The notes beneath the pieces were generated by a model, which was not told the DNA's origin, made no database searches, and worked only from the letters and a program-made list of their open reading frames with translations. Below, one piece after another: positions 4,609-43,512 of a stretch of DNA of 64,000 nucleotides. The number at the start of each line of letters is the position of its first letter. The stretch's first letter is position 1. The DNA comes from Candidatus Udaeobacter sp. (lineage in GTDB: Bacteria > Patescibacteriota > Patescibacteriia > Magasanikbacterales > GWA2-37-8): positions 33,126-97,125 of the forward strand of contig DATION010000004.1 of assembly GCA_035473115.1 (NCBI GenBank). The letters run 5' to 3'. The position numbers were made by a program, and so were the translations under genes.

Positions 4609-5463
4609 CTACATTTTAAAAATATTTATACTTAGCGCCAGATACATTCTTAACTTAATACCGAGCCAAATTACTGAATTTATAAAAAAATTATGTCGAA
4701 AATGTTTTTTATAATACAGCCACATGGATTCATAGAAATTTATCAATGATTTTACTCGGCGCTTACCGCTGCTTTGTCCGCCAAAATGGATAATTTTCGC
4801 TTCACTAACATACACCGTTTTCCAGCCTTTATCAAGCACTCTTTTGCAAAAATCCAAGTCTTCTCCGTACATAAAAAAAATCTCATCAAACCCGCCATTT
4901 TCCTGATAAACTTGCCTGCGAAACATCATAGCGGCTCCGGAGAGCGCCTCGGTCGGACCAGTAATTTCCGGGTCAGTTGCATACTGTTTATAACTGTTTA
5001 TAAATTTATTATTTTTAAAAATCTTAGTCAACCCAAACAGGTGAAAAAATGAATTAATCGGATTTGGTAGCATGCGGCGGCAAGCGTGCTGAAAAGTTAA
5101 GTCTTTATTTAATAATCTTGGGCCAACCATCATTGTGTCTGAGTTCTGATCCAAGTAGTTTACGAGTTTGTTTAAAGCACCATCTAAAACCACAACATCA
5201 GTATTTAAAAACATCAAATAATCACCCTTGGCTATTTTTAATCCTTGATTATTGGCTTTGCCAAAACCTAAATTATCTTTATTTTCTATTAACACTACTT
5301 GTGGAAAATCTTTTTTAATCATTGCTACACTACTATCAGCAGAGTTGTTGTCAGCCACAATCACTTCAAAATCTATTCCGGAAGTTTCTTTATAAACCGA
5401 AGCTAAAGCCTGTTTGGTCAGGTCGCATGTATTCCAATTAACAAAAATTATCGATAATTTCAT
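4609..5463 (-). CDS. family 2 glycosyltransferase
   Basis: LSIIFVNWNTCDLT...VADNNSADSS shows the GT-A fold DxD-type signatures. Length is 284 aa. Confidence 0.75.
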   Translation of the reverse strand: MKLSIIFVNWNTCDLTKQALASVYKETSGIDFEVIVADNNSADSSVAMIKKDFPQVVLIENKDNLGFGKANNQGLKIAKGDYLMFLNTDVVVLDGALNKLVNYLDQNSDTMMVGPRLLNKDLTFQHACRRMLPNPINSFFHLFGLTKIFKNNKFINSYKQYATDPEITGPTEALSGAAMMFRRQVYQENGGFDEIFFMYGEDLDFCKRVLDKGWKTVYVSEAKIIHFGGQSSGKRRVKSLINFYESMWLYYKKHFRHNFFINSVIWLGIKLRMYLALSINIFKM

Positions 5464-6464
5464 ATTTCAAATTTTATTTTACCAGTTTTTCTTTCATAAA
5501 CTCCAACTGGCCAGCCACACATCTTTGCCAAATCACCATACAAGATAATCAGTGGCAAAAAAATATAGCCGGTAATTATTTTTAAAAAAGATATATTTTT
5601 TGAAAAAACATGCCATCTGCGCCAAAATTTAACCAGATAGTCGAGCCATAAGCCTAATAAAATTACTCCAAACCACAGGCTTATACTACATGATAAAAAT
5701 AATAAAATTATGTTTAACAAATAAAAAGTATATCTTATTGTTTGACGTTTAAACCACAGCTTGCCATGACCATCGCTTCTGGTATAGCCAAACAATTGCT
5801 TAAAATATTTTTGTAAAGTCTTTCTTGGCTGCCAAAAAACCAACGGCTCTCGGATATATTCTGTTTTTATTCCTAATTTAAATATTTTCAGATCAAAAAT
5901 AACATCTTCGCACAAAGGAATCCATTCCGGATAACCGCCAGCTTTTTGCCAAACTTCTTTTTTAAAGGCAACCGAACGGCTGGAAGGCAGCCAATCTTTC
6001 TCAAATTCCGCCGGCGCAGGTGTGGTAGCCGCGGCTACCAGATATGGCAAAAAACTATCATCCGACTTAAACCAAGGACCAAAACCGGTAGCTGTAAAAA
6101 TACTTTTACCGGACAAAATCGGATCGGTAATTTTTCTAAACCAATTAATATCATAGGTACAACCCGCATCAGTAACAACAATTATCTCTCCTACGGCTTT
6201 GCCAATTGCAAAATTCCTGCCAGCCGAAATATTGCCGAGGTGTTGCCAAACTTTTAGCAAACTGTTTTGCTTGCTTTTTTCTAGCAAAGCTTCCCATGTA
6301 CCGTCTTTAGAACCGCCATCCACGATAACTATTTCTTCCGGTAAAACTGTCTGGGATAAAATACTATCCAACCAGTCGGAAAGATTATTTTTTTCATTTA
6401 ATACGGTTGTGATTAAAGAAATCATGAAAAATAAAATTATCTCTAACCATGGACTATTTCCCAA
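5460..6464 (-). CDS. family 2 glycosyltransferase with C-terminal membrane anchor
   Basis: ITTVLNEKNNLSDWLDSILSQT...IVIVDGGSKDGT GT2 core followed by two C-terminal TM helices. ATGA overlap with the downstream gene. Confidence 0.7.
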   Translation of the reverse strand: MGNSPWLEIILFFMISLITTVLNEKNNLSDWLDSILSQTVLPEEIVIVDGGSKDGTWEALLEKSKQNSLLKVWQHLGNISAGRNFAIGKAVGEIIVVTDAGCTYDINWFRKITDPILSGKSIFTATGFGPWFKSDDSFLPYLVAAATTPAPAEFEKDWLPSSRSVAFKKEVWQKAGGYPEWIPLCEDVIFDLKIFKLGIKTEYIREPLVFWQPRKTLQKYFKQLFGYTRSDGHGKLWFKRQTIRYTFYLLNIILLFLSCSISLWFGVILLGLWLDYLVKFWRRWHVFSKNISFLKIITGYIFLPLIILYGDLAKMCGWPVGVYERKTGKIKFEI

Positions 6465-6925
6465 GAATAGGGAATTTTTTTAGACAAAGGATCAAGACGG
6501 GTAATTTCATTTTTATCGTGCGGCAAAGTGGCGCAATTAGCAACAATCACCGGCTCTGCGCTTATACATTTAAAGCCATTCCAGACCATTGGCGGCACTT
6601 TTACCAAAAGCCTATTATCTTCGCCGATAAATATTTCCATCAGATTACCTTTTGTCGAGCTTTCTTTGCGATCATCGTATAGAACTAACTTTGCCATTCC
6701 AACCACCACGCTGTACATTAAAGTCATTTCTTTATGCAAATGCCAAGCTTTAACTACGCCAGGATTAGCTTTAGAAAAATATATCTCTCCAAATTTTTCA
6801 AAAATGGGGTCATCATTGCGCAACATATGATAAATAGCTCCGCGCTCATCGGGAATAACCGAAATATTTTTTACTTCAACCCCTTGAATTGGACCGCCTT
6901 TAATGCCAAAAATTGTGTCTGCCAT
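6443..6925 (-). CDS. WxcM/FdtA-like cupin (putative NDP-4-keto-6-deoxyhexose 3,4-ketoisomerase)
   Basis: 160 aa. An HxH-containing cupin core (KAWHLHKEMTLMY) resembles FdtA/WxcM C-terminal domains. An RmlC-like alternative is not excluded. Confidence 0.45.
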   Translation of the reverse strand: MADTIFGIKGGPIQGVEVKNISVIPDERGAIYHMLRNDDPIFEKFGEIYFSKANPGVVKAWHLHKEMTLMYSVVVGMAKLVLYDDRKESSTKGNLMEIFIGEDNRLLVKVPPMVWNGFKCISAEPVIVANCATLPHDKNEITRLDPLSKKIPYSWEIVHG

Positions 6926-15959: not shown

Positions 15960-18251
15960 CTAAACTAAAATATTTTTCATCCACTTATAAGAGCGGCTTA
16001 AGCCGGCTCGTAAATTAATTGATGGATGGAAATCAACTTGCGACTTGGCTTTAGACAAGTCCGGACAGCGTCTGGAAGGTTCATCCTGCGGATAAGTATC
16101 TGGATAATTAACCAGATTTATTTCAACTTTTTTATCAGTGACAATCTCAGAAACAATTTCTGCCAAAGCTTTCATATTAATTTCTTCATCATCATTGCCG
16201 ATATTAAAGACCTCGCCGTTTTTTTCCGAAAGTAAAACTTTAAAAAATCCAACCATCGCATCGCTGGCATAACAAAAAGTACGGGTTTGGTTTCCTTTAC
16301 CATGAACTGATAACGGCTTGCCTTCAATCGCCTGACTTAAGAATGTCGGCACAACTCTATAGTCTTTGGCGCTCATTCCCGGACCATAAACATTAAAAGG
16401 CCGAACAATTTTTATAGGGGTGTTGTGGACACGGTGATAAGCTGTACCCAAAGTTTCGCCCAAACGCTTTGATTCGTCATAGCAAGAGCGCGGACCGGTA
16501 GAAGAAACATTGCCTCGGTATGTTTCCGGAGTAGGAATGAATTTCGGATCAGGATCTCCGTAAATTTCACTGGAACTAAAATATAAAATACTCTTTACCT
16601 TTTTTTCGAGTCCCAATTTTAACATGTTGCTTAATCCAAAAACCGCTCCTTCTATTGTTTCAATCGGATACCGCATGTAATAAACCGGTGAAGCGATGCC
16701 GGCGGCGGAGATTATATAATCTACCGGAACATCTAAAGTTAGCGGGTCGCAAATATTATGATTCTTAAAAGAAATATAATTACTATCAATTTCTTTTAAG
16801 AGATTATTCTTTTTTCCGATGATATGATTATCTATTGAAAGCACTCGGCAAGGTTCCTTAAAATATCTTTTATTTAACAAATCTATAACTGCGATAAAAT
16901 AACTGCCGATAAAACCGGAACCGCCCGTAATCAAAACACTTTTACCTTCTAACGATTTGGCTACTTCCGCAACTTCTTTGGCGATAAAATCTAGATCACC
17001 TTCCACAATTCCGCTAACCACCTGAGCAAACGGCACTGGAATAATGAAATTCTCAAAATCCGAACATTTCTTAATAATAGAATCGGCAAAATTCCAAGCT
17101 AAAACCAAAATATAATCTGGCGGATTGGCTTTTAATTCTGTGGCTGGCTTAACCGGAATATGCGTTCCCGGAGTATAAAGCCCCTGCTTCCAAACGCTGT
17201 CATCAATAATATAATCGAGTGTTTCTGTGCCAATATTAAAATAATTTAACAAAGTGCTGCCTTTGGCTGGAGCGCCATAACCAACGATTTTCTTTCCTTT
17301 TGATTTTAGTTCGCTTAAAAGTCCAAGCAAACGAGTTTTATTTTCGGCAATTTTAGCTTCAAAACTGGTAAAAGTTTCTATCTCATTAATTTTTTTATTT
17401 TTTTCCTCATTGATAAATCGCTCCACATTAGAACCTAATGGATATTTACCACCTTTTCTTTGTACAAAAACCCTCAATGAGCCACCATGAGTGTCTGTTT
17501 TATCAACATCAAAAACCTGCATACCCAAACGATCAAACAGAGTACTGATTGTTTTTACCGTAAAATACGATAAATGTTCATGGTAAATAGTGTCAAATAA
17601 ATTTTTCTCTACTAGATCCAATAAATAATAGGCTTCAATGACAAAAACACCGTCATCAGCCAACAAATTTTTTACGCCTTCCACCACTTGATCTAAATCA
17701 TCAATATGTGGAAAAACGCTGGTGGCGGTAACTAGCGATGCTTTGCCTTTGGCTTGAACTATTTTGTTGGCTATTTCTGGAGTAAAGTAAGCAGCCATTG
17801 TTTCGATACCGTTTTCGGTTGCTCTGGCCGCAATATTAGCCGCCGGATCAACGCCCATAATTTTAACTCCCATTTCTTTGTATGGCCGAAGCAAAATTCC
17901 ATCATTGCTGCCGATATCAACTACCAGCGAATTACTGTTCAAGCTAAAACGCTGAGCCATTTCGGAAGCAAAAGCTTTAAAATGCGCCACAAAAACAGGT
18001 GATGTTGACGAACTATAAACATAATTGCTAAACAGCAGATCCGGAGAAACAACATGACTAAGCCCAACAAAAGAACAATCCTTACAAAAAGATAATTCCA
18101 AAGGAAAACTATGCTCCGGCTTTTCCAGATCTTCTGGTTTTAAGAAAGCATTGGCCGGAGGCGTACTGCCCAAACTAAGCACTTGGGTTAAATTTTTTCC
18201 TTTACAAACTCGACAAGACTCGCTCTTTTTAAATAAAGATTGATCCGACAT
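15960..18251 (-). CDS. bifunctional fusion: NDP-sugar C-methyltransferase-like (Zn-ribbon + SAM MTase + C-MT C-terminal domain) fused to UDP-glucuronate decarboxylase (UXS)-like SDR
   Basis: 763 aa. N-terminal CRVCKGKNL...CKDC Zn-ribbon and a VVDIGSNDG SAM motif. The C-terminal half has VLITGGSGFIGSYF, YDESKRLGE (UXS/ArnA-type YDExKR) and RPFNVYGPGM. Confidence 0.65.
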   Translation of the reverse strand: MSDQSLFKKSESCRVCKGKNLTQVLSLGSTPPANAFLKPEDLEKPEHSFPLELSFCKDCSFVGLSHVVSPDLLFSNYVYSSSTSPVFVAHFKAFASEMAQRFSLNSNSLVVDIGSNDGILLRPYKEMGVKIMGVDPAANIAARATENGIETMAAYFTPEIANKIVQAKGKASLVTATSVFPHIDDLDQVVEGVKNLLADDGVFVIEAYYLLDLVEKNLFDTIYHEHLSYFTVKTISTLFDRLGMQVFDVDKTDTHGGSLRVFVQRKGGKYPLGSNVERFINEEKNKKINEIETFTSFEAKIAENKTRLLGLLSELKSKGKKIVGYGAPAKGSTLLNYFNIGTETLDYIIDDSVWKQGLYTPGTHIPVKPATELKANPPDYILVLAWNFADSIIKKCSDFENFIIPVPFAQVVSGIVEGDLDFIAKEVAEVAKSLEGKSVLITGGSGFIGSYFIAVIDLLNKRYFKEPCRVLSIDNHIIGKKNNLLKEIDSNYISFKNHNICDPLTLDVPVDYIISAAGIASPVYYMRYPIETIEGAVFGLSNMLKLGLEKKVKSILYFSSSEIYGDPDPKFIPTPETYRGNVSSTGPRSCYDESKRLGETLGTAYHRVHNTPIKIVRPFNVYGPGMSAKDYRVVPTFLSQAIEGKPLSVHGKGNQTRTFCYASDAMVGFFKVLLSEKNGEVFNIGNDDEEINMKALAEIVSEIVTDKKVEINLVNYPDTYPQDEPSRRCPDLSKAKSQVDFHPSINLRAGLSRSYKWMKNILV

Positions 18252-18653: not shown

Positions 18654-18754
18654 ATTACAGAAAGATATTAATAATAAATTAAAACAAGCTTATTTGATTA
18701 AGATTGCTAGTAAAATTATATTACAACTCTAAGAAAGAGTCAACCTAAAAAACC

Positions 18755-19582
18755 TTACTTTTCCCCTCTTTTTAGCTTCCAAACTTGAAGATATAAAGTG
18801 AAATAATAGATAAATTGCTGCAGGCCGATATTAAAGCCTGTCCAGCTAGTCCACAAACCATTCTTCATCTGGCCCAAAAAATTCTTTATCGGTTCAAAAA
18901 AAATATAATAATAGATATGGCTGCGTACTTTATTGACCTTATTAACCCAGACTTCTTCGGTAGTATTAAAATACTCTATTTTAGTTTTTTCCGGGAAAAA
19001 ATATTTCGCATGAATCGGAACCCATTTTGCTCTTTTTTTCAAAAAAGATTGCCAGCTTACGTTGTTATACAGTGGGCGGTGACGTAAAAAAATATCTACC
19101 TTTTGCGCAATTCCTTTGACATGGCCTATCTCGTGAGGAACAGCTTGATAATAAAAATTTTTCTTCCGGAACAGACACATCTTTTGCAAACCTTTAAAAT
19201 AAACCGGCTGCTTTCCATTCCACATTTCCCATTTAAAAATATAGCCATCGACCCCTGCCGGAGCATTATTTACCAAATCTCGAATACGCTCATGATCGGC
19301 AATATCAAGATACTCATCGCCATCCATCTGCAGTATCCAGTCGCCTGTCGCTTGAACAAAGCCAAAAGCGCGGTGCGGTTCGGCTTCGCCAATATGTTCA
19401 CGCACAAAAATCTTATCAGTGTATTTTTTGGCAATTTCCAAAGTTTTATCACCGCATTCTCCGTCATGGATCACAATAATTTCATCAACCAAATCTTTGA
19501 TACTCAAAAGACAGCGCTCAACAATTTTTTCTTCATTGTATACGATAAGACAGGCAGAAATTTTTTGCTTGCTATTTTCCAT
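18755..19582 (-). CDS. family 2 glycosyltransferase
   Basis: ISACLIVYNEEKIVERCL...MDGDEYL GT-A signatures. Length is 275 aa. Confidence 0.65.
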   Translation of the reverse strand: MENSKQKISACLIVYNEEKIVERCLLSIKDLVDEIIVIHDGECGDKTLEIAKKYTDKIFVREHIGEAEPHRAFGFVQATGDWILQMDGDEYLDIADHERIRDLVNNAPAGVDGYIFKWEMWNGKQPVYFKGLQKMCLFRKKNFYYQAVPHEIGHVKGIAQKVDIFLRHRPLYNNVSWQSFLKKRAKWVPIHAKYFFPEKTKIEYFNTTEEVWVNKVNKVRSHIYYYIFFEPIKNFLGQMKNGLWTSWTGFNIGLQQFIYYFTLYLQVWKLKRGEK

Positions 19583-21135: not shown

Positions 21136-21747
21136 TTAAAAATTATTGGCTGCAACTACTTTAGCCATTTGCAATAAATTTTTTACAGTAAAATCAGGTT
21201 TAATGTCTTTGTATTTTTCATCGAGACGCGCATGGCCTGGACCGGTTTTTACTAAAATTGTTTTCAATCCGGCTTTCTTGCCAGCCACCACATCTATCAA
21301 AGCATCTCCGACCATAAAACTTTTTTTCGGATTTATATTTAATTTTTTTAACCCTTTTAAAATCATTCCCGGTCTTGGCTTACGACAATGGCAACGCAAA
21401 CGATATTTTGGCATGGTTGCTTCCGGATGATGCGGACAAAAATATATGGCGTCTACTTTAGCGCCTTTACCGCCTAATCTTTCGATTAAAACCGCATGAA
21501 TATTATCAATCTCTTTTGGCCCGACAATTCCCCGTGCCACCACCGGCTGATTGGTAACTACAACTACCAAAAAACCTAATTTATTTAACAGACCAATAGC
21601 CTGTGCCGCGCCAGGAAGTAATTTCAACTCTTCTACTGAATGCATCAGTTCTACCTGTTTAATTATAGTGCCGTCTCTATCCAAAAAAACAGCCTTGCGG
21701 CCGGACTTAAGCTTTTTTTTTGGCTTTATTGACCTAGTAGCAATCAT
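21136..21747 (-). CDS. gmhB: D,D-heptose 1,7-bisphosphate phosphatase (HAD superfamily)
   Basis: Start trimmed to the ATG at 21747, which forms an ATGA overlap with the gmhA stop. VFLDRDGT HAD motif I and a CPHHPEATMPKYRLRCHCRKP zinc-binding loop typical of GmhB. Confidence 0.75.
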   Translation of the reverse strand: MIATRSIKPKKKLKSGRKAVFLDRDGTIIKQVELMHSVEELKLLPGAAQAIGLLNKLGFLVVVVTNQPVVARGIVGPKEIDNIHAVLIERLGGKGAKVDAIYFCPHHPEATMPKYRLRCHCRKPRPGMILKGLKKLNINPKKSFMVGDALIDVVAGKKAGLKTILVKTGPGHARLDEKYKDIKPDFTVKNLLQMAKVVAANNF

Positions 21748-22313
21748 AATCGCGCCAGCAAATTTATCAATAAATGATTGACTACCAATTGATAATCTTC
21801 GGTATGAGGAGTTACCATAGTTTCTTCTACTGTCGGCACTACCAAACAAGCATCAGCGATTTGAGCAGCCACACCACTAGATCTGCCAACTACTGCCAAA
21901 ATTCTGGCTCCCACAACTTTGGCATATTCCATAGCTTTCACTAAATTACCGGAAATATTTTGCGTGCCGCCGTTGACTGAAAAAATAAACAGGCAATCTT
22001 TGGCGGTAAGGTTATGCATTTCTAACTGTCGTTTAAAAACCGAATCCCAACCCTCGTCGTTTGCTAAAGCAGAAAATAAACCAACATTATCACTCAAACA
22101 AAAAGTAGAAATTTTAGCAATTTTATTAAAATCATTAGTCGCATGTGAAGCTGATGAGCCGCCTCCGCCTATACCCAAAAAGAATACTCTGCCTTTTAAC
22201 TCCCTGGTAATAGCTAAAATATCAGCCATCTTTTCTAAATGCTCACGACTACATTCATTGGCGATTTGAGCTGTTCTTTTTAGATATTGATCAATAAATT
22301 GATGCTTATCCAT
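21744..22313 (-). CDS. gmhA: phosphoheptose (sedoheptulose-7-phosphate) isomerase, SIS domain
   Basis: 189 aa. VFFLGIGGGGSSASHATNDF...SVNGGTQNI SIS-domain signatures of GmhA. Confidence 0.8.
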   Translation of the reverse strand: MDKHQFIDQYLKRTAQIANECSREHLEKMADILAITRELKGRVFFLGIGGGGSSASHATNDFNKIAKISTFCLSDNVGLFSALANDEGWDSVFKRQLEMHNLTAKDCLFIFSVNGGTQNISGNLVKAMEYAKVVGARILAVVGRSSGVAAQIADACLVVPTVEETMVTPHTEDYQLVVNHLLINLLARL

Positions 22314-22543
22314 ATTCGAAATGAGTGAGGGGAATAATTAAATGTATTTAATTATTGCCGAACGAATGAGATTATATGGGCAAAGCCCATATAATATTAA
22401 ATCAAAGAATAATTACTTACTTTTTCATTGTTAGTATAACTATTTCTTATAAAAAATGTCAACAGTAACAGTAAATTTTCTTAAATTAATAACGCTCGGC
22501 CATCTTTTGGACAACCGAGCGAAACTACTCCTTACTAAATTAA

Positions 22544-23455
22544 TTACTGCTTATTCCAGTTCTCTTGGAGCTGCTGCCAGAGCCAACCGACCAGATCGGG
22601 CGCCCCAGCAATAAAGCCGATGCCACCCTCTTTAGTACGATTACTACGATTGTAACTCGGCAAATCCGGCTCCACAAGCGGAACAAGCAATCCACCACGG
22701 TAGTGGTAGTACTGGACTTTACCTCCAGCCGCTTCGATAATTGTGGCCGACGCCCAATCCCACGGCCACTGATGGGGCTGAACAATAGCTTCTGCCCGAC
22801 CAGCGGCGACCATAGCTACGCCAAGCCCACAGGATCCGGCGACAACTGCCGTCTCCACAGTCTTCGCGACCTCATGTTGAAACTTCTGGAAATGAGGCCT
22901 CTTGAGCACATCCACTCCATATAGAACAGTGGACTTCTCTACTGGACGTTCCACCACCCTAGCTGGCTGAGCAGTATGATATGACCCATCCGTCACAAAC
23001 ACACCTTGCCCCTTCTCACCAAAAACCAAAAACCCATTTCGGATATCAGGAGCAAAAATAGCTCCACCCTGATGCTGTCCGTCCTGTATCCAATTCGCAA
23101 CAACACTCCAATCGAAGCGATTGCGATAAGCACCGGCAGTTCCATCCACCGCATCAAGAACGAATACGGTCCCTGGCTGCTTGATCTGACCGAGATTGCC
23201 ATTCAGGATCAGGTCAGGCCCCTGGCATTCCTCTTCGGCAAGAAAAAACGCGCCTGGAAAATTAGAACGGAGTTCGGAAAGAAGCATAGCCTGACTATTC
23301 CCATCAGCCTCAGTACTAATCGAATGATGACTTCCGCCAGGCTCACCGTCTTTTACCTTAGCATTAACACCTTGAGCCAAAACCTCTTTGACCATAGCCC
23401 CTGCCATAGCAACTGCGGTAGAAAGAACATGCACCTGACGAGAAAAGTTTGACAT
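22544..23455 (-). CDS. inositol monophosphatase/CysQ-family phosphatase (compositionally foreign, high-GC gene)
   Basis: 303 aa. FVLDAVDGT (DPIDGT-type) and WDWASATIIEAAGG (WDxAAG-type) motifs. Local GC is roughly 52% against about 35% in the flanks. It has its own SD (AAGGAG) and a TTGACT promoter. Confidence 0.6.
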   Translation of the reverse strand: MSNFSRQVHVLSTAVAMAGAMVKEVLAQGVNAKVKDGEPGGSHHSISTEADGNSQAMLLSELRSNFPGAFFLAEEECQGPDLILNGNLGQIKQPGTVFVLDAVDGTAGAYRNRFDWSVVANWIQDGQHQGGAIFAPDIRNGFLVFGEKGQGVFVTDGSYHTAQPARVVERPVEKSTVLYGVDVLKRPHFQKFQHEVAKTVETAVVAGSCGLGVAMVAAGRAEAIVQPHQWPWDWASATIIEAAGGKVQYYHYRGGLLVPLVEPDLPSYNRSNRTKEGGIGFIAGAPDLVGWLWQQLQENWNKQ

Positions 23456-23640
23456 GACTTGCTCCTTTAGTTGTTGATCGTGGAATTAACTCACTCCATC
23501 ACTATTCCAAAAATTTTTCGAAATATTAACAGTGCGAGTGTTGACCAGAACCAACTTGATATGGCTGAAAAACTTCTTTCTACTTTATCTTCCGACCAGC
23601 ATGGGTCAGAAAGACATGATAACTTATAACAAATAAACAA

Positions 23641-23672
23641 AAAAGTCAAGGATACATCCTCGACTTTTTTGT
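23641..23672. terminator. hairpin terminator after the oxidoreductase gene (overlaps the -35 region of the islet-1 promoter)
   Basis: AAAAAAGTCAAGGATACATCCTCGACTTTTTT. An imperfect 9-bp stem flanked by an A-run and a T-run. Confidence 0.5.
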
Positions 23673-23681
23673 TTAGCAAAA

Positions 23682-34611: not shown

Positions 34612-35958
34612 TTATTTGTATTGACCTAAAAATTCTTCAAAGCAAGCAACCATATATTCCATCATTTCTTTAGTCAAACCAGGATAAACACCAACCCAGA
34701 AGGTATTATTCATTACCAAATCGGCATTTTTAAGATCGCCAACCACTCGATAATCAATTTTATTATCTACAAAGTAAGGCTGCTTAATAATATTGCCGGC
34801 AAACAAATAACGAGTCGCTATCTGTTTGTCTTGCAAAAAACGCACCACCGTATCGCGATCAAACGGCGCGTCTTCTTGAACCGTCAACAGAAAACCAAAC
34901 CAGCTTGGCTCGGCATTATCCAGCCATTTTGGCAAAATAAAATAATCTTCAAACTTTTTTAAGCCATTATATAAAATATCAAAATTCTCTCGGCGTTTGG
35001 CCACAAAACTATCTAATTTATCCAACTGAGCCACGCCTAATGCAGCTTGAACATCGGTAGTTTTTAAATTATAGCCAATTTCCGAATAAATATATTTGTG
35101 ATCATAACCATATGGCAAATTTCCTAGCTGCCAACCAAAGCGCATACCGCAAGTATTATCACAACCGGATTTACACCAGCAATCTCGGCCCCAATCACGG
35201 AAAGAACGGATTATTTTTGCCAACATGCCGTCGTTGGTGAAAACAATTCCACCTTCACCTAAAGTAATATGGTGCGCCGGATAAAAACTGCAGGTAGCAA
35301 TATGGCCAAATGTGCCAGTATGCTTGCCATTATAAATTGAGCCCAAAGCATCACAGTTGTCTTCGATTAGCCACAGATTATGCTCTTTACAAATTGCGGC
35401 AATAGCCTCTAAATCAAATGGATTACCCAAAGTATGAGCCAAAAATATGGCTCTAGTTTTTGGAGAAATAGCTTGTTTAATCTGCTCAACATTGGCATTA
35501 TAATAACCCAAGTCAACATCCACAAAAACCGGTACCAATTTATTTTGAATAATCGGATTAACTGTGGTTGGAAAACTGGTCGCCACTGTAATTACTTCAT
35601 CGCCCGGATTTAATTTCTTGGCGCCTAATTTAGAAGAAGTAAGGGCTGTCATCGCCAGCAAATTGGCAGACGAACCCGAATTTACCAAAATCCCCTGTTT
35701 TACTCCCAGCCAATAAGCTAATTTGCTTTCAAATTCTTCAGTAAAATGACCTTCAGTCCACCAACCTTCCAAAACTGCATCTACCATACTGAGCATCTCT
35801 TTTTCATCAAAAACTTTTCCAGATACTGGCACAGATGACTGGCCGGGAACAAATGATTTTGCTGGAAATTTTTTGCTATATTCGGCTTGAATTTGCTGGC
35901 GCAAGGAGTCTTCCATACTTGATAATAAATGAAAATAATTAACTTTTACATTTACCAT
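34612..35958 (-). CDS. rfbH: CDP-4-keto-6-deoxy-D-glucose 3-dehydratase (E1, PLP/PMP-dependent, DegT/RfbH family)
   Basis: A long identity-like block to RfbH/DdhC: SFRDWGRDCWCKSGCDNTCGMRFGWQLGNLPYGYDHKYIYSEIGYNLKTTDVQAALG. The N-terminal VPVSGKVFDEKE and LVNSGSSANLLAMTALTS also match. The true start may be the Met 14 codons downstream. Confidence 0.85.
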   Translation of the reverse strand: MVNVKVNYFHLLSSMEDSLRQQIQAEYSKKFPAKSFVPGQSSVPVSGKVFDEKEMLSMVDAVLEGWWTEGHFTEEFESKLAYWLGVKQGILVNSGSSANLLAMTALTSSKLGAKKLNPGDEVITVATSFPTTVNPIIQNKLVPVFVDVDLGYYNANVEQIKQAISPKTRAIFLAHTLGNPFDLEAIAAICKEHNLWLIEDNCDALGSIYNGKHTGTFGHIATCSFYPAHHITLGEGGIVFTNDGMLAKIIRSFRDWGRDCWCKSGCDNTCGMRFGWQLGNLPYGYDHKYIYSEIGYNLKTTDVQAALGVAQLDKLDSFVAKRRENFDILYNGLKKFEDYFILPKWLDNAEPSWFGFLLTVQEDAPFDRDTVVRFLQDKQIATRYLFAGNIIKQPYFVDNKIDYRVVGDLKNADLVMNNTFWVGVYPGLTKEMMEYMVACFEEFLGQYK

Positions 35959-36117: not shown

Positions 36118-36714
36118 TCAGCGCCAGGTGGAGAGCAAGGCCTTGTAGGCCTTGGGGATGATCAGGTCGCGGTGGAGATCCACCGTGACCTCGGGCAGGT
36201 GGTCCACGGGGAACCAGCCATGCCGATCGTCGACCCGCGGATCACTCTTGAGAGCGATCAGGAAGATCATGGAGTGCACCGTACCGCGGGCCTCCGACGT
36301 GATCTCCTTGCCGACCAGAGTGAATCCGGAGATCTCGGCTCCGAACTCCTTTCCGAGTCTGTTGGCGACATGCTGGTCCTGCTCGCCATGGCGGTAGAGC
36401 GAACCAGGCGCATGCCACTCGCCCGGATAGGCGGTATCATCTGGGGCTCGCCGCCGCAGATAGACCTCTGCAGTGCCACTCTTGCCCTTGCGGAAGAGCA
36501 TGGCCTCGAAGGCCGACGTGGGCCAAAGCCTCATCGTTGAGTCGCAAAACTTCGTTCCCACCGGCCTGGTGTTGTCGATCCGATCCATCTGACCAGCGAT
36601 CATCTCCCTGAAACCATCGCTGTTGGGATCCATCCGACCGAGCAAACCAGCGACCAGCGCCTTGAACTGATCGCTCTGGGGATTGAGATTCTCTGGGACT
36701 ACCAATCCGTTCAT
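36118..36714 (-). CDS. hypothetical protein on a second high-GC islet (weak Nudix-like GxWxxPG...GE...R...E.G pattern)
   Basis: 198 aa. GC is roughly 55% over about 36020-36720. A GGAGGG SD sits 7 nt before the ATG. PGEWHAPGSLYRHGEQDQHVANRLGKEFGAE loosely fits a Nudix box. Confidence 0.35.
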   Translation of the reverse strand: MNGLVVPENLNPQSDQFKALVAGLLGRMDPNSDGFREMIAGQMDRIDNTRPVGTKFCDSTMRLWPTSAFEAMLFRKGKSGTAEVYLRRRAPDDTAYPGEWHAPGSLYRHGEQDQHVANRLGKEFGAEISGFTLVGKEITSEARGTVHSMIFLIALKSDPRVDDRHGWFPVDHLPEVTVDLHRDLIIPKAYKALLSTWR

Positions 36715-36858
36715 TTTTCACCCTCCCGTTAATTGTTCTGGTTCGCTTCTCGACTCTTACTGGGAGTCAAAGAAGACATATTAAATTATCATAAATTAAC
36801 AAAAAAGTCAAGGTTTCCCCTGACTTTTTCGCTAATGATACGAATTATTATTTTAACT

Positions 36859-37815
36859 CTAAAAATTCACTCTTTCTTTTTCAATTACTAGCGGCCGCTC
36901 GCGCACCTGGGTATAAATTGCGCCAATATATTCGCCCAAAATACCGATAAAAAATAACTGGATAGAAGAAAATAAAAATATGCCGATAGTTACCGGTGCC
37001 AGTCCGGCTTCAAACCTATCCCAAAAAAGAAGTTTGTAAACTAAATAAACTATTCCGACTATAAAACTAATAACCGACATACCAAAACCAATAAAGCTGG
37101 CCAGACGCAAAGGAATCTTGGAATGGTTCACAAACCCCAACATGGCCAAATCATAAAGGGAATAAAAATTATTACTGGTCTTGCCCCTTTTTCTGGCCGG
37201 CTGCACATAACTAATCTCGGCCCGATTAAAACCGACTTCGGTAATTAGGCCGCGGAAATATGGATACGGGTCTTTCAACGTTCGCAATACAGCAATAAAC
37301 TTTTGATCATATAGTCCAAAACCGGTAAAATTTTTAATCTGTTCAATATCTGATAATTTTTTCATCAGATCGTAATAAACTTTGCGAATCGCAAACATTA
37401 AAGGATTTTCTTCACTCTGATTTTTTACTCCCACCACAATCGATTTTCCCTCTTCCCATTTTTGCAAAAATTCTTTGATCATTACTGGCGGATCCTGCAA
37501 ATCCGACGCCATCAGTATCACCGCGTCGCCATAGGCTTGCTGCAGGGCATAATATGGCGAACGAATATGGCCAAAATTTTTAATGTTAACGATAATTTTT
37601 ACATTGTAGTCGGCTGCGGCTAGTTTTTTTAAAATTTCCACCGTATTATCTTGCGAAGCATTATCAATAAAAATATGTTCATAACGATACTGCGGCAAGT
37701 CAGCAAAAACTGCCTTTACTTGTTTATAAAGTTCTTCCACGTTTAATTCTTCGTTATAGCAAGGAGTAACAACGCTGATTAGTTTTTTATCTGACATATA
37801 AATTTTAGTTGTCAT
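36859..37815 (-). CDS. family 2 glycosyltransferase, GtrB/ArnC-like polyprenyl-phosphate sugar transferase with C-terminal TM helices
   Basis: LISVVTPCYNEELNVEELYKQV...IFIDNASQDNT...MASDLQDP followed by two C-terminal TM segments. Length is 318 aa. Confidence 0.7.
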   Translation of the reverse strand: MTTKIYMSDKKLISVVTPCYNEELNVEELYKQVKAVFADLPQYRYEHIFIDNASQDNTVEILKKLAAADYNVKIIVNIKNFGHIRSPYYALQQAYGDAVILMASDLQDPPVMIKEFLQKWEEGKSIVVGVKNQSEENPLMFAIRKVYYDLMKKLSDIEQIKNFTGFGLYDQKFIAVLRTLKDPYPYFRGLITEVGFNRAEISYVQPARKRGKTSNNFYSLYDLAMLGFVNHSKIPLRLASFIGFGMSVISFIVGIVYLVYKLLFWDRFEAGLAPVTIGIFLFSSIQLFFIGILGEYIGAIYTQVRERPLVIEKERVNF

Positions 37816-38796: not shown

Positions 38797-40611
38797 TTAT
38801 TGTTTCTTAGGCGGTGTTTTGACTATCATATTTTCGTTCAATTCTTCTTGACTCAAGAACGGAAACATATTTTCATAAGGATTAGAAATCATTTTACCAT
38901 CCGGACCTTTTTCCGAAGTTACTCGCGGAATCAGCAATTGCCATTCCGGAGTCATCACATCACAAATTACCGGACCGTCATAATCCAAAACTTCTTTTAT
39001 TTTAGCATCAACTTCATCTACCGAAGAAATGCGTACACCTTTGATGCCATATACTTCGGCCAACTTAACAGAATCCGGACACCACACGCCAGACGCCGGA
39101 CTTTCGCCAATCATCCGACCTTCAAAAAAATTACGCTGCGTATGACGCATTAACAAGTAACCGTTATTATTAAAGATAAAAATTTTTAACGGCAAATTAT
39201 TTATTTTGACTGTGGCGAGTTCCTGTAAATTCATCTGCAAACTGCCGTCGCCGGTAATAACAATTGTTGGCTTGCGGTCGGCGGCCACACAAGCGCCAAT
39301 GCCAGCTACCCAATAACCCATTGTCGAGATACCGCCGGTAGTCAGAAAACGCTGCTGTGGTTTTATTTTCCAAGTTTGAGCCGCCACATGAAAACAAGAT
39401 CCGGTATCAACCAAAATATTGGCACCAATTGGAGCCAACTCGCTTAACCGATCGGTAAAATAATAAGAATTGACCGGTTTTTCATCTTTATACGAAGGCA
39501 AAACAACCGGATATTTTTTCTTCCAATTCTGACAAATTGCCAGCCATTGCGGTCTTTCAATTTCTGATTTACTATCGGCATATTTAGCCAGTTCAACCAA
39601 AAATTGTTTGGCATCAGCCAAAACCGGCAAAACTATATTCAAATCCGGCTTATCTAATTCTTTCTGATCAATATCAATAATAATTTTTTCGGCATTACGG
39701 CCAAAATCTTTGACATTATAACCGGTAAGAGAAACTGTGAGACGAGAACCGATAGCAATAATCAAATCTGCGTTCTGCACGGCAAAATTAGCAGAGCGTT
39801 CACCGTAAGTTCCCGGCCGGCCAATATAAAGCGGATGATCACTAGTAATAATATCTAAACCTAAGCGAGACGTAAGCAGCGGAATTTTTATTTTTTTAAT
39901 AACATCTTCAAAAGCTGCTATACCACCCGACAACCTGACTCCTTGGCCAAAAATAAACAGGGGTCTTTCTGCTTTAGCGATCCGCTCATAAACAGCAACT
40001 ACTTTTTCTAATAACTCTTTTGATGGTTCAGCTGATTGTATTTCAGTTTTTTCGGTAAAAGAATAAGCATCAATAACTGATTGCGGCACTTCGCTGCGCT
40101 GCATATCAACCGGCACTTCAATCCAAACTGGACCGGGGCGACCGGTGGTAACTTGCCGCCAAACTTCGGCTAGATATTCACCGATCCGAGCCGGATCATC
40201 GACTGTGACAAAATATTTGGTTATGGGAGTAACCATCTTACGAATACTAATCCCCTGCACGCCAAATTGGCGAATATCGGTCTTTTCGGCATACTGCACT
40301 ATAGATAAATTTGATTGTCCGGAAATCACAATCATTGGTGATGAATCTACCCACGCGCCCACTACGCCATTTAAAGCGTTAACTGCTCCCGGTCCGGCAG
40401 TGACCATAGCTATCGCCGGCTTATTGGCTACCCTCCCATAAGCCTCAGCAGCCATAGTGGCAGCTTGCTCATGCAACGGACAGATATAATGAAAATTTTT
40501 ATTCTTGGCAACTGCATCATTTAAAAACATGGCATGTCCGCCGGTAATAGTGAACACTTCGGTTACGCCGCGCTCGCCAAAATATTTGAAAATAAAATCT
40601 GCAACATTCAT
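38797..40611 (-). CDS. thiamine-diphosphate-dependent enzyme of the acetolactate synthase large-subunit family (YerE-like candidate sugar C-branching enzyme)
   Basis: 604 aa. N-terminal TPP-enzyme Pyr domain (VTEVFTITGGHAMFLNDA...VTAGPGAVNALNGVVGAW) and C-terminal ThDP motif GDGSLQMNLQELATV...NNNGY. Confidence 0.7.
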   Translation of the reverse strand: MNVADFIFKYFGERGVTEVFTITGGHAMFLNDAVAKNKNFHYICPLHEQAATMAAEAYGRVANKPAIAMVTAGPGAVNALNGVVGAWVDSSPMIVISGQSNLSIVQYAEKTDIRQFGVQGISIRKMVTPITKYFVTVDDPARIGEYLAEVWRQVTTGRPGPVWIEVPVDMQRSEVPQSVIDAYSFTEKTEIQSAEPSKELLEKVVAVYERIAKAERPLFIFGQGVRLSGGIAAFEDVIKKIKIPLLTSRLGLDIITSDHPLYIGRPGTYGERSANFAVQNADLIIAIGSRLTVSLTGYNVKDFGRNAEKIIIDIDQKELDKPDLNIVLPVLADAKQFLVELAKYADSKSEIERPQWLAICQNWKKKYPVVLPSYKDEKPVNSYYFTDRLSELAPIGANILVDTGSCFHVAAQTWKIKPQQRFLTTGGISTMGYWVAGIGACVAADRKPTIVITGDGSLQMNLQELATVKINNLPLKIFIFNNNGYLLMRHTQRNFFEGRMIGESPASGVWCPDSVKLAEVYGIKGVRISSVDEVDAKIKEVLDYDGPVICDVMTPEWQLLIPRVTSEKGPDGKMISNPYENMFPFLSQEELNENMIVKTPPKKQ

Positions 40612-40623
40612 ATAATGAAAAAG

Positions 40624-41643: not shown

Positions 41644-41648
41644 CCAAT

Positions 41649-42524: not shown

Positions 42525-42545
42525 AGCTTATAACGGTAATCAATC

Positions 42546-43502: not shown

Positions 43503-43512
43503 GTAAAAAGAA

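Follow-up and report, generated by a model that had tools for sequence, protein, structure and literature searches.

A GC-rich gene for an IMPase-like phosphatase within a glycan locus

The window, i.e. the whole 64-kb stretch of DNA analysed here, carries an open reading frame of 303 aa on the minus strand (22544-23455) with an ATG start and a TAA stop codon. As stated in an initial annotation of this DNA, it lies between a heptose operon and an oxidoreductase gene, the latter being GFO_IDH_MocA. The GC content of the gene is 0.516 compared to 0.380 in the rest of the window, and in windows of 300 nt it peaks at 0.55 within the gene and is 0.29-0.31 on either side. The sharp contrast described initially was recovered, but its figures (well above 50% in a locus of about 35%) had to be corrected to 51.6% and a background of 38%. 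Compared to the 51 other genes of the window, the gene is an outlier in total GC (z = 5.6) and at all three codon positions (z = 4.6, 2.7 and 4.7 for GC1, GC2 and GC3, respectively). More than half of the GC excess is supplied by GC1 and GC2, and the encoded protein has the highest content of G/A/R/P and the lowest content of F/Y/M/I/N/K in the window.

A profile search assigned the protein to the Pfam family PF00459 (Inositol_P) with 84.6 bits, above the gathering cut-off of 27 (E = 1.1e-23). Together with the codon positions, this bears out the earlier description of an IMPase-family gene of foreign composition in a low-GC glycan locus. Both motifs reported for the clean 303-aa frame, VLDAVDGT and WPWDWASATIIEAAGG, were found. 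The catalytic motifs E/EE, D-x-x-D-G-T and W-D-x-A-x-x align with the motifs of TM1415, and a comparison of 16 close with 26 distant members showed little or no variation at E74/E75, D101, D104-G105-T106 and D233. An AlphaFold model (pLDDT 85, pTM 0.88) adopts the alpha-beta-alpha-beta-alpha sandwich fold and retrieved more than 100 IMPase-family matches from the PDB with Foldseek (probability 1.0). To judge from sequence and model, this is one functional gene, encoding a predicted Mg2+-dependent phosphomonoesterase of the IMPase fold.

Among the NCBIfam models the CysQ equivalog TIGR01331 gave the highest score, yet with 52.1 bits it stayed below its cut-off of 228.8. The same was observed for TIGR02067 (HisN histidinol-phosphatase, 47.5 bits, cut-off 275), NF009321 (class IV FBPase/IMPase, 20.2 bits, cut-off 264) and NF008027 (SuhB-type inositol-1-monophosphatase, 18.6 bits, cut-off 332). 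Assignment to a subfamily by PDB sequence or fold was not discriminating, as IMPase, SuhB, FBPase/IMPase and PAP phosphatase matched about equally.

The protein belongs to a subfamily shared by CPR bacteria and DPANN archaea

Relatives of about 300 aa can be recognised by a PGGSHHS loop, which is invariant, together with a YYHYR block and an extension at the C-terminus. In total, 87 clusters (50% identity) matched at E <= 1e-30 and through the C-terminus, whereas the first ordinary IMPases appear at around E ~1e-17, with matches that end at about position 247. This gap in E-value and the full-length match including the C-terminus argue for a distinct subfamily. The taxon names within it point to CPR bacteria and to archaea of the DPANN group. 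Among the CPR, members are a regular part of a GDP-heptose-type glycan cluster, along with SIS/GmhA, GHMP kinase, HAD/GmhB, NTP-transferase, transaldolase, GFO, SDR and UDPG-DH genes.

In the tree, the window copy falls into a GC-rich clade that is rare, monophyletic and nested within the CPR branch. Outside this clade the composition is native, with no more than a small excess in L011 and L012; native IMPase-like genes are already high in GC1 (0.63-0.64 in L016 and L012). Within the clade, a GC excess was observed in all ten loci with informative flanks, and GC3 was elevated by 0.13 to 0.40, with a maximum of 0.92 against 0.52. The GC3 of the gene correlates with that of the host (rho 0.87, p 0.001). 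At +0.13, the GC3 excess of the window copy equals that of L010, and no other member of the clade has a lower one. In the relatives, the gene often has further GC-rich neighbours (HIT-like, EamA-like, HAD, P-loop kinase-like and DUF218), which are co-oriented and vary in set and order from genome to genome. L007 is GC-rich along its whole contig, but this contig measures 3.4 kb and consists entirely of such module genes. A HIT-like gene with an HxHxHxx motif is found beside the IMPase-like gene in L002, L004, L007 and L016, and a eukaryotic HIT-IMPase fusion protein was also found (P0278).

Most likely, the enzyme would dephosphorylate a sugar phosphate belonging to the heptose pathway. Candidates may be heptose or sedoheptulose (bis)phosphate, or a sugar-1-phosphate released by HIT-like or Nudix-like cleavage of an NDP-sugar. 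The canonical GDP-heptose pathway has all its steps even without an IMPase-like enzyme, and a literature search returned no report of an IMPase in heptose clusters. A GmhB-like HAD gene (21136-21849) lies close by, so the IMPase-like enzyme appears to be additional and not a replacement. The role as PAP phosphatase considered earlier gained no support from the locus: besides the CysQ score of 52 against 229 bits, no sulfotransferase, ATP sulfurylase, APS kinase or PAPS genes were detected among the scanned ORFs of the 64-kb window. In L003 a P-loop protein is weakly APS kinase-like (E = 2e-4, well below the cut-off).

The gene is flanked by conserved cis elements

All elements described here lie on the minus strand. 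The Shine-Dalgarno sequence AAGGAG is located 6 nt before the ATG (23462-23467) and is kept at this position in relatives. A boundary element (23605-23675) precedes the ATG by about 190 nt; in it, the terminator-like hairpin of the GFO_IDH_MocA gene overlaps a probable promoter. The hairpin comprises 19 pairs (dG -23.9, z -7.6); its 3' arm contains a putative -35 sequence, TTGACT (23649-23644), followed after a spacer of 15 nt by the -10-like TATAAG (23628-23623). Four conserved copies of this element are present, each bordering GC-rich genes on their 5' side (both islets of the window and the modules of L001 and L017). The two copies in the window align with a score of 61, compared to a null maximum of 34.

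At the 3' end, the gene has its own terminator-like hairpin with a T-rich tail (22483-22521), assigned by predicted fold and conservation. The hairpin proper (22521-22493) forms a 12-bp stem (dG -21.2, z -4.6) and is kept in L010, L009 and L001, including a compensatory change from T:A to C:G. L001 retains it despite a different downstream gene. Beyond it lies a promoter-like TTGACA-18-TATACT (22433-22462) with 11 of 12 consensus matches, conserved in L010 and L009. It would serve the downstream gmhA-gmhB-hddC-tal operon, and the unit ends here. The ribosome-binding site, the TTGACT element and the GC-rich 3' hairpin had all been noted before: the first can be read directly in the sequence, the second is part of a conserved unit with a predicted promoter function, and the third is real. 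The suggestion that the gene is wired into local expression signals thus agrees with the terminator-promoter element, the Shine-Dalgarno sequence and the gene's own terminator, as far as expression can be predicted from sequence. On the same basis, we describe the gene as a self-contained unit of terminator-promoter element, structured leader, ORF and conserved terminator.

The structured 5' leader of about 77 nt (23486-23561) was delineated by a covariance model and a consensus fold; a loose regular expression had returned mostly noise and was replaced by the model. Two hairpins make up the consensus: P1, with 5 bp, and the longer P2, in which a 7-bp and a 10-bp stem are separated by a 2x2 internal loop. 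In the window the element has degenerated, with P1 replaced, but it still folds and was recognised by covariance model R1 with 56 bits (E = 4e-13). In the alignment, which holds nine related sequences only, 9 of 22 pairs stay paired despite changes on both sides, and 94.9% of cells are paired compared to 86% in shuffles (0/500) and 42-53% in slid controls. The 12 strongest sense-strand copies precede a start codon by 25-130 nt; weak copies in L004 and L018 have no clear following gene. The element occurs three times in L001, and in L002 it is also found downstream of the last GC-rich gene. G.U pairs confine the structure to the sense strand, which, together with the position of nearly every copy before a start codon, suits an mRNA leader. 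Rfam gave no match to the leader, either at the gathering threshold or when all E-values up to 1 were admitted. An upstream ORF or leader peptide was considered and rejected, as, judged by eye, substitutions are not biased towards synonymous ones, the P1 loop varies while its stem is kept and the window copy has no ATG.

Between leader and boundary element, positions 23562-23604 align with the 5' UTR of DUF218 in L017 and L001 and then pass directly into the leader. DUF218 occupies this site in L017, L010, L009 and L001, and in the tree the window is nested among these four. From alignment, occupancy and tree position we infer that the window lost DUF218. The stretch, which includes a decayed Shine-Dalgarno sequence, is probably what remains of the 5' UTR of the deleted gene, judged from this alignment.

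A second GC-rich islet

A second GC-rich gene lies 13 kb from the IMPase-like gene (36118-36714, minus strand; GC 0.606, GC3 0.77, z = 16). It encodes a weakly Nudix-like protein of 198 aa, for which no Pfam or NCBIfam match was found and which matches the pyrophosphohydrolase PDB 3ees (E = 0.004). The second copy of the boundary element (36766-36836, minus strand) lies 5' of it; here the terminator hairpin of a GT2 gene (36859-37815) is combined with TTGACT-15-GATAAT, predicted to drive expression of the islet. The possibility that this gene is a homologue of the GC-rich neighbours in the relatives was dismissed, no homology being found.

The gene was probably acquired long ago from the CPR gene pool

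RpoD places the organism in the Patescibacteria, near Magasanikbacteria, which fits the episymbiont-type organism supposed in the initial annotation. The NCBI label 'Candidatus Udaeobacter sp.' is at odds with the genes present, which makes the binning or labelling of the contig unreliable. The arrangement of low, high and low GC recurs in ten independent assemblies from different samples, and the junction of IMPase-like gene, terminator, promoter and gmhA aligns base by base with L010 and L009. These two observations exclude an assembly artefact and dispel the concern about a chimeric assembly raised earlier. The identical protein is also on record from a second source, Logan.

The gene is present at the same site in four syntenic relatives (L017, L010, L009 and L001), a result to be read with the fact that all relatives were retrieved via the IMPase-like protein itself. 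Compared to L010, the closest of these, dS is saturated at 1.64 (flanks 1.15-1.89) and dN/dS is 0.09. Since it shares its site with four relatives and its dS is as saturated as that of its flanks, the window gene is not recent. The IMPase-like protein is 66% identical to those of L002/L003, while nine of the ten other shared cluster genes reach 25-46%, which argues for lateral spread across host clades. The exception is an MT-epimerase fusion (15960-18251), likewise 64-65% identical across clades. Inside the window's clade the IMPase-like protein is among the most diverged (69-76%, compared to 74-94% for others). The conflict in identity could alternatively arise by replacement of the other cluster genes, with this gene staying in place.

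Among 5.8 billion sequences, no non-self protein exceeded 77% identity, and outside the GC-rich clade no match was above about 38%. All non-self matches with examined context (L001-L004, L007-L010, L017 and L018) are CPR-like glycan loci. GTDB species genomes contributed four loci, two being L002 and L003 again, and JGI metagenomes two; none of these comes from a clearly high-GC donor genome, and no donor lineage of uniformly high GC was seen. A viral origin was discarded, as IMG/VR holds no relative. The islet does not bear the marks of mobility considered (mobility genes, flanking direct repeats or a tRNA target): the window has no recombinase, and tRNAs are at least 25 kb away. Assuming neutral decay from a GC3 of ~0.9, the observed values are barely reached at dS ~0.8 per lineage, and L002 and L007 are still at 0.88-0.92. 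This points to several transfers of differing age or to a force that retards amelioration.

Of the recent horizontal acquisition put forward initially, the lateral origin is retained on the basis of composition and identity conflict, but its recency is contradicted by the syntenic relatives and the saturated dS. An actinobacterial or other high-GC host is not visible as donor, the clade being nested among CPR sequences of native composition. Relatives share the gene, its site and the kind of GC excess, a pattern that the initial annotation had itself named as the sign of an ancestral gene. We conclude that the gene was laterally acquired long ago from the CPR gene pool and not recently from a high-GC host. 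Transfers into Patescibacteria are reported to come mostly from other Patescibacteria and not to be recent, Actinomycetota donors being rare (PMC12455944). Neither integrons nor GC islets in CPR turned up in a literature search.

The favoured explanation and its alternatives

Taken together, it is likely that the window carries a functional IMPase gene of a laterally spread GC-rich CPR clade, old at this site, kept by purifying selection and organised as its own unit. The clade would have spread among CPR lineages, often alongside other GC-rich tailoring genes, and the window copy would not be the native version. It would have been in place behind DUF218 before the window and the four syntenic relatives diverged from their common ancestor. 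Purifying selection would then have kept the gene, while most of its third-position GC excess was lost and the GC-type protein composition retained, as in the classical amelioration pattern; DUF218 would have been lost later in the window lineage. Transcription may proceed from the terminator-promoter element through structured leader, Shine-Dalgarno sequence and ORF to the terminator. A recent transfer from a high-GC donor, e.g. an actinobacterium serving as host, with the gene only lately connected to local signals, would explain the GC step at the gene borders, the foreign composition at every codon position and the gene's own terminator and leader. We regard it as very improbable, since it conflicts with the syntenic relatives, the saturated dS, the minimal GC3 excess, a best non-self match of 77% with nothing above about 38% beyond the clade, and the conservation of leader, terminator and promoter elements along with the gene across lineages. 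A chimera or mis-binned contaminant, in line with the discordant NCBI label, is practically discounted by the ten assemblies, the L010/L009 junction and the Logan protein. The gene might also be native and vertically inherited, its GC resulting from GC-type amino acids or selected GC-rich codons with no transfer. In CPR heptose clusters the subfamily at large is native, with a GC1 that is high even there, more than half of the window excess resides in GC1/GC2, and the gene is old and under selection. This explanation nevertheless seems improbable in view of the GC3 excess in ten of ten loci (up to 0.92 vs 0.52), the equal excess of unrelated neighbours (HIT-like, EamA-like, HAD, DUF218), and a protein 66% identical across clades (other genes mostly 25-46%) yet among the fastest-evolving within its clade.

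Two further readings assign a larger role to the cis elements. By analogy with attC, attI and Pc of integrons, the locus might be a cassette-type mobile system in which single GC-rich tailoring genes are gained, reshuffled and lost behind a fixed promoter-bearing boundary element, the ~77-nt element being the recombination site. Co-oriented GC-rich genes differ in content and order in every genome; in L001, L003 and L002 such variable ORFs are separated by repeated imperfect palindromes. The leader occurs at gene boundaries (three times in L001, after the last GC-rich gene in L002, weaker in L004/L018), the same boundary element heads both window islets and the L001 and L017 modules, and the window has probably lost exactly one gene, DUF218. 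However, no integrase or recombinase was found in the window or the examined loci, the leader consensus has no RYYYAAC/GTTRRRY cores as judged by eye, the strand-specific G.U structure 25-130 nt before start codons suits an mRNA leader, and L007 packs three module genes tightly with no element between them. We therefore give this system only a small chance. Somewhat better placed, though still doubtful, is a mobile, exchangeable tailoring module of CPR heptose-glycan loci, defined by two undescribed cis elements and with the IMPase-like enzyme as its core. It would comprise IMPase-like, HIT-like, HAD, DUF218, kinase-like and EamA-like genes and perhaps the Nudix-like islet 2, with the terminator-promoter element at its head and the ~77-nt two-hairpin element before individual genes. 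The latter might be a metabolite-sensing leader of a new riboswitch class or the site of a recombinase-less cassette system, and the core sugar-phosphate phosphatase would work with a HIT-like or Nudix-like partner that cleaves NDP-sugars.

Significance

CPR bacteria are thought to rely on their cell surface to attach to hosts, and to our knowledge their glycan pathways are almost uncharacterised. The old, laterally acquired gene described here marks a conserved, unstudied heptose-linked step in CPR with relatives in DPANN archaea. Tailoring genes for surface glycans would travel from one CPR lineage to another in units of distinct composition and then persist for long. A GC excess that outlasts saturated synonymous divergence offers a test case for the rate of amelioration in small AT-rich genomes. 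Both conserved cis elements are also candidates for a regulatory RNA or promoter architecture, which would be the first described at such loci. Where a sharp GC islet appears in a MAG, relatives should be checked before recent transfer or contamination is called.

Comparison with known systems

The window protein has the fold of known IMPases (SuhB, Thermotoga TM1415, Aquifex aq_1983 and human IMPA1/2; TM 0.66-0.74 query-normalised, 0.77-0.87 target-normalised) and shares their metal-binding and catalytic motifs. In contrast, it is only 16-22% identical to them, reaches no NCBIfam equivalog cut-off and is ~35-40 residues longer because of its C-terminal extension. In the catalytic-loop region PGGSHHS replaces the usual D-x-[ST]-P-V-T, and the context is a heptose glycan cluster instead of rRNA antitermination or inositol metabolism. 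Among CysQ/HAL2 3'(2'),5'-bisphosphate nucleotidases, the Entamoeba PAP phosphatase 4hxv is one of the top structural matches; however, TIGR01331 is far under its cut-off and sulfation genes are absent from the window. GmhB, the HAD-family D-glycero-D-manno-heptose-1,7-bisphosphate 7-phosphatase, belongs to the same pathway neighbourhood and possibly acts on the same substrate class, but its fold is unrelated.

In the Smirnoff-Wheeler pathway of plants, VTC2 is a HIT-family GDP-L-galactose phosphorylase and VTC4 an IMPase-family L-galactose-1-phosphate phosphatase. This pair can be likened to the HIT-like and IMPase-like pairing in L002, L004, L007 and L016, and the shared logic would lead from NDP-sugar via sugar-1-phosphate to free sugar. 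In sequence, the relation goes no further than the superfamily level, and the window has no HIT-like gene but only the distant Nudix-like one.

According to the model of Lawrence & Ochman, horizontally acquired genes ameliorate towards their host. In the GC-rich clade, third positions have indeed shifted towards the host far more than first and second positions, and GC3 tracks the host. Unlike in this model, the excess outlasts saturated synonymous divergence in every lineage, and the donor pool seemingly lies in the same radiation. Integrons consist of attI/Pc and arrays of attC-bounded gene cassettes. Some of the loci likewise show co-oriented variable genes, a repeated imperfect palindrome and a fixed promoter-bearing element upstream, but no integrase was found, attC sites with their cores and extrahelical bases are absent from the element consensus as judged by eye, and the repeated element behaves as a sense-strand 5' leader. 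In its covariation-backed structure and its site in the sense 5' UTR, this predicted leader resembles a riboswitch-like cis-regulatory RNA.

Composition and setting of the IMPase-like gene

The IMPase-like ORF (912 bp; 22544-23455, minus strand) has a GC content of 51.6% within a 64-kb window of 38.2% GC. In 300-nt steps, GC was 0.50-0.55 inside the ORF and 0.29-0.31 in the spacers on either side. Set against the window's 51 other genes, it stands out at all codon positions, with a GC1 of 0.655 (mean of the other genes 0.464; z = 4.6), a GC2 of 0.428 (0.336; z = 2.7) and a GC3 of 0.467 (0.340; z = 4.7). Its product has the most GC-type amino-acid composition of the window. The islet reported in the initial annotation was recovered with its ORF, composition, motifs, SD and 3' hairpin, and the foreign composition was upheld at every codon position. 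The GC excess is real, but the value lies just above 50%, not well above it, in a background of 38% rather than 35%. Membership in the IMPase family was borne out by the Pfam IMPase model (E = 1e-23) and by the presence of the motifs cited for it.

A single large glycan-biosynthesis locus takes up the window from ~2.3 to 46.5 kb; FtsW, MurG, RpoD, DnaG and genes of that kind flank it. Directly downstream of the IMPase-like gene lie gmhA (SIS), gmhB (HAD), an NTP-transferase and a transaldolase gene; upstream are GFO_IDH_MocA, SDR, UDPG-dehydrogenase-family and GHMP kinase genes. Together, these neighbours make up a complete GDP-heptose-type set with tailoring enzymes. All of the ~50 real-looking ORFs of at least 120 aa between 298 and 57703 are on the minus strand, and GC skew is negative across the whole profiled stretch of 18-28 kb. 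At 34612-35958 and 38797-44310 we noticed a DegT-family protein in which His replaces the catalytic Lys (judged by eye; similar to 3-dehydratases of the E1/ColD type), an aldolase-dehydrogenase pair resembling DmpG/DmpF, a TPP enzyme, an NTP-transferase and an NDP-hexose 4,6-dehydratase, a set that recalls branched or 3,6-dideoxyhexose synthesis.

RpoD (51704-53002, minus strand) shares 88% identity with a protein of a 'Parcubacteria group bacterium' and 73-85% with those of named Magasanikbacteria; the host is therefore a CPR bacterium. RpoD and the relatives of the glycan cluster agree on Patescibacteria, near Magasanikbacteria. The NCBI label 'Candidatus Udaeobacter sp.' (Verrucomicrobiota) is most likely a mis-assignment, probably due to mis-binning or mislabelling. 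Nor are the taxon labels 'Gammaproteobacteria' and 'Methanosarcinales', borne by related short MAG contigs, credible.

Protein family and fold

None of the NCBIfam equivalog cut-offs was reached by the IMPase-like protein: CysQ scored 52 bits (cut-off 229), HisN 47 bits (cut-off 275), and SuhB and FBPase/IMPase both ~20 bits. A confident AlphaFold model built from 16 homologs (pLDDT 85, pTM 0.88) fitted structures of IMPase, SuhB, FBPase-IMPase and PAP phosphatase about equally well, with 16-22% identity. As the family keeps its metal-binding and catalytic residues invariant, the protein very probably acts as a phosphomonoesterase. In an exhaustive profile search, 87 clusters (50% identity) with E ≤ 1e-30 matched through the C-terminal extension, while hits to ordinary IMPases of ~265 aa set in near E ~1e-17 and ended at about position 247. 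These profiles place the protein in a distinct subfamily of ~300 aa, whose named members belong to CPR bacteria (Magasanikbacteria, Liptonbacteria) and DPANN archaea (Pacearchaeota, Aenigmarchaeota). In two DPANN loci, L014 and L015, the gene is native in composition and lies outside glycan loci; it adjoins a DHH phosphoesterase in L014 (6230-8891), and in L015 (8001-9666, 9661-11269) its neighbours are a form III-type RuBisCO, a cytidylyltransferase-like gene and another IMPase, of the ordinary kind.

Age of residence and lateral origin

Only 16 proteins in 5.8 billion are at least 45% identical (best 77%), and the family occurs at 4 loci in 185,579 species genomes and on 2 JGI metagenome contigs. 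Using the IMPase-like protein itself to retrieve all relatives, 10 further loci of the GC-rich clade were recovered. The gene is the GC peak in 10/10 loci with native flanks (window counted), with a GC3 excess from +0.13 (window, L010) to +0.40 (L002, 0.92 versus 0.52). On all long contigs it lies within the same kind of heptose cluster. The gene order of L017 equals that of the window exactly, save for one extra DUF218 gene just upstream of the IMPase-like gene; this DUF218-IMPase pair is also found in L010, L009 and L001. Between window and L010, dS (NG86) is 1.64 for the IMPase-like gene and 1.15-1.89 for gmhA, gmhB, hddC and tal, and its dN/dS is 0.09. The shared site, the flank-like dS and the low dN/dS indicate old residence under purifying selection, the gene having occupied this site already in the common ancestor of these lineages. 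The proposal of a recent acquisition does not hold, since syntenic relatives share both gene and site.

Sequence comparison points to a foreign gene on three grounds: a clade-limited anomaly, GC-rich neighbours and decoupled divergence. Members at 30-38% identity, from CPR heptose clusters (L011, L012, L013, L016) and from DPANN (L014, L015), differ little or not at all in composition from the genes around them; the anomaly is confined to one monophyletic clade nested in the CPR branch (all trees were NJ trees). Unrelated genes adjoining the IMPase-like gene in relatives show the GC excess too; which of them are present, and in what order, varies between genomes: HIT-like, EamA-like, HAD, IMPase-like in L007; EamA-like, kinase-like, IMPase-like in L003; EamA-like, HAD, HAD, DUF218, IMPase-like in L001; HIT-like, IMPase-like in L002; IMPase-like, HIT-like in L004; DUF218, IMPase-like in L017, L010 and L009; and IMPase-like alone at this site of the window. 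L010 also carries, where the window has only ~140 bp (18701-18837), an extra 512-aa gene (5266-6804, minus strand; GC 51-54%) with a CxxxCxxC radical-SAM-like motif (by eye), a further GC-rich islet in the same locus type.

Within the window's clade, the IMPase-like protein is 69-76% identical, the lowest or equal lowest value per locus, and other cluster genes reach 74-94%. Towards L002 and L003 it retains 66% identity, whereas nine of the ten other shared cluster genes show 25-46%. For a gene that evolves fast, this similarity between distant hosts is far too high and indicates lateral spread. Formally, the other cluster genes could have been replaced instead while the IMPase-like gene stayed; this would leave unaccounted for why it, rather than they, departs from host composition. 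The exception among the ten, a C-methyltransferase/epimerase fusion of native composition (15960-18251, minus strand; 763 aa; 64-65%), is a second gene with excess cross-clade similarity. As to the source, neither the actinobacterial donor suggested initially nor another high-GC donor was visible. According to a published survey of groundwater Patescibacteria, 83% of detected incoming transfers came from other Patescibacteria and 1 event from Actinomycetota, and most transfers were not recent (PMC12455944). The IMPase-like gene is a xenolog that was acquired long ago from within the CPR gene pool, has been under selection and has partly ameliorated; it stands in a conserved expression unit.

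Across the clade GC1 (0.60-0.71) and GC2 (0.41-0.49) are similar, and GC3 (0.47-0.92) follows host GC3 (rho 0.87, p 0.001), a pattern that looks like amelioration, with the window copy among the most ameliorated. Window and L010 have accumulated ~0.8 synonymous substitutions per site per lineage since their split, and a two-state decay estimate from this dS leaves about a quarter of the initial excess. Given the observed +0.13, ancestral GC3 would be near 0.9, which is tight but possible, L002 and L007 standing at 0.88-0.92. The copies with high GC3 would in that case have arrived later, unless something retards amelioration. Decay accounts only partly for the GC excess and leaves room for a cassette-type reading, on which GC-rich tailoring genes would travel as a mobile module.

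Expression unit and structured leader

The GFO gene ends in a terminator-like hairpin (23675-23605, minus strand; 19 bp, dG -23.9, z -7.6). TTGACT, called a promoter element initially, lies within the 3' arm of this hairpin, with TATAAG 15 nt further on; it is a plausible predicted promoter, missed by a standard scan because of the 15-nt spacer. The whole boundary unit of ~65-110 nt is also conserved in L001 and L017, where it borders the GC-rich genes on their 5' side, and we read it as a putative compact terminator-promoter. The following segment (23604-23562, minus strand) aligns with the DUF218 5' UTR of relatives, has a decayed SD and runs straight into the structured leader; we take it as the probable scar of a DUF218 deletion. 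The SD AAGGAG stands 6 nt from the ATG, and the 3' hairpin is real and terminator-like (12-bp stem). This conserved terminator of the IMPase-like gene (22521-22483, minus strand) is kept with compensatory change in L010, L009 and L001, in the latter despite a different downstream gene. A strong promoter-like TTGACA-18-TATACT (22462-22433, minus strand) then starts the gmhA operon. The gene is hence embedded in a conserved expression unit, and was not newly wired into local signals. The gmhA 5' UTR holds a window-specific insertion of ~75 bp (22320-22400) with the palindrome ATATGGGCTTTGCCCATAT, absent from L010 and L009.

The leader (~77 nt; 23561-23486, minus strand) was defined by a nine-copy alignment and a covariance model. 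All nine related copies fit a 5-bp hairpin followed by a longer one, in which a 2x2 internal loop separates 7 bp from 10 bp. Pairing is kept through two-sided changes in 9/22 pairs; the paired fraction of cells is 94.9%, whereas shuffles give 86% (0/500) and slid partners 42-53%. Owing to its G.U pairs, the fold is sense-strand-specific. Of the nine, the copy in the window is weakest and richest in AT, yet it folds. Copies lie in L001 (2661-2737, 3264-3341 and 4100-4178, preceding three consecutive genes), L002 (9800-9877, 10977-11050), L003 (2970-3043, 3730-3803), L007 (2293-2367), L009 (664-740), L010 (576-655) and L017 (7885-7958); those at L002 10977-11050, L003 2970-3043 and L017 were found by the model outside its training set, and weaker matches occur in L004 and L018. 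Behind them stand GC-rich IMPase-like, HAD, DUF218 and kinase-like genes, and in L002 also a phosphoribosyltransferase gene. In some copies a further hairpin (TCCGAC..GTCGGA + TTTCAAA) lies upstream. Rfam gave no match to the leader, even at E ≤ 1. We regard the two-hairpin element as a candidate, either for a new cis-regulatory RNA or for a site at cassette boundaries. The gene belongs to a distinct IMPase-like subfamily and, within it, to a laterally spreading GC-rich clade, and is accompanied by two cis elements without an Rfam match.

A second GC-rich gene, islet 2 (36118-36714, minus strand; 198 aa), has 60.6% GC and a GC3 of 0.77 (z = 16) and is far less ameliorated than the IMPase-like gene. 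Its product had no match in Pfam or NCBIfam and bears a weak resemblance to Nudix proteins (PDB 3ees, E = 0.004), its Nudix box being degenerate; no homolog was present in any retrieved locus. A second copy of the boundary unit lies 5' of it (36836-36766, minus strand). The two window copies align with a score of 61 (maximum 34 in 468 other segments), with compensatory changes in the hairpin arms, and the islet-2 copy is closer to the L001 version than to its counterpart in the window.

Proposed role

The protein is an enzyme of the IMPase fold, conserved and under selection, whose catalytic motifs are intact, and its association with heptose-pathway genes extends to deeply separated CPR lineages, including members with 30-38% identity. 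GmhA, GHMP kinase, GmhB and NTP-transferase complete the canonical pathway on their own, so that the enzyme adds an extra step, presumably dephosphorylation of a sugar phosphate linked to the heptose pathway. Pathway context tentatively suggests a phosphatase acting on heptose or sedoheptulose mono- or bisphosphate. A PAP or other nucleotide phosphatase is improbable, and the window holds no sulfation genes; an inositol phosphate phosphatase, suggested by the family name, is equally hard to credit. Doubtful, though less so, is a role as the second half of NDP-sugar cleavage, with a HIT-like partner or the Nudix-like islet-2 protein, which sits behind the same promoter element. HIT-like and IMPase-like genes are adjacent in L002, L004, L007 and L016, suggesting sequential action. 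The eukaryotic 403-aa protein P0278 joins HIT and IMPase domains (PF01230 + PF00459), a Rosetta-stone hint that such enzymes act in sequence. A cleavage route of this kind would be analogous to plant VTC2 and VTC4.
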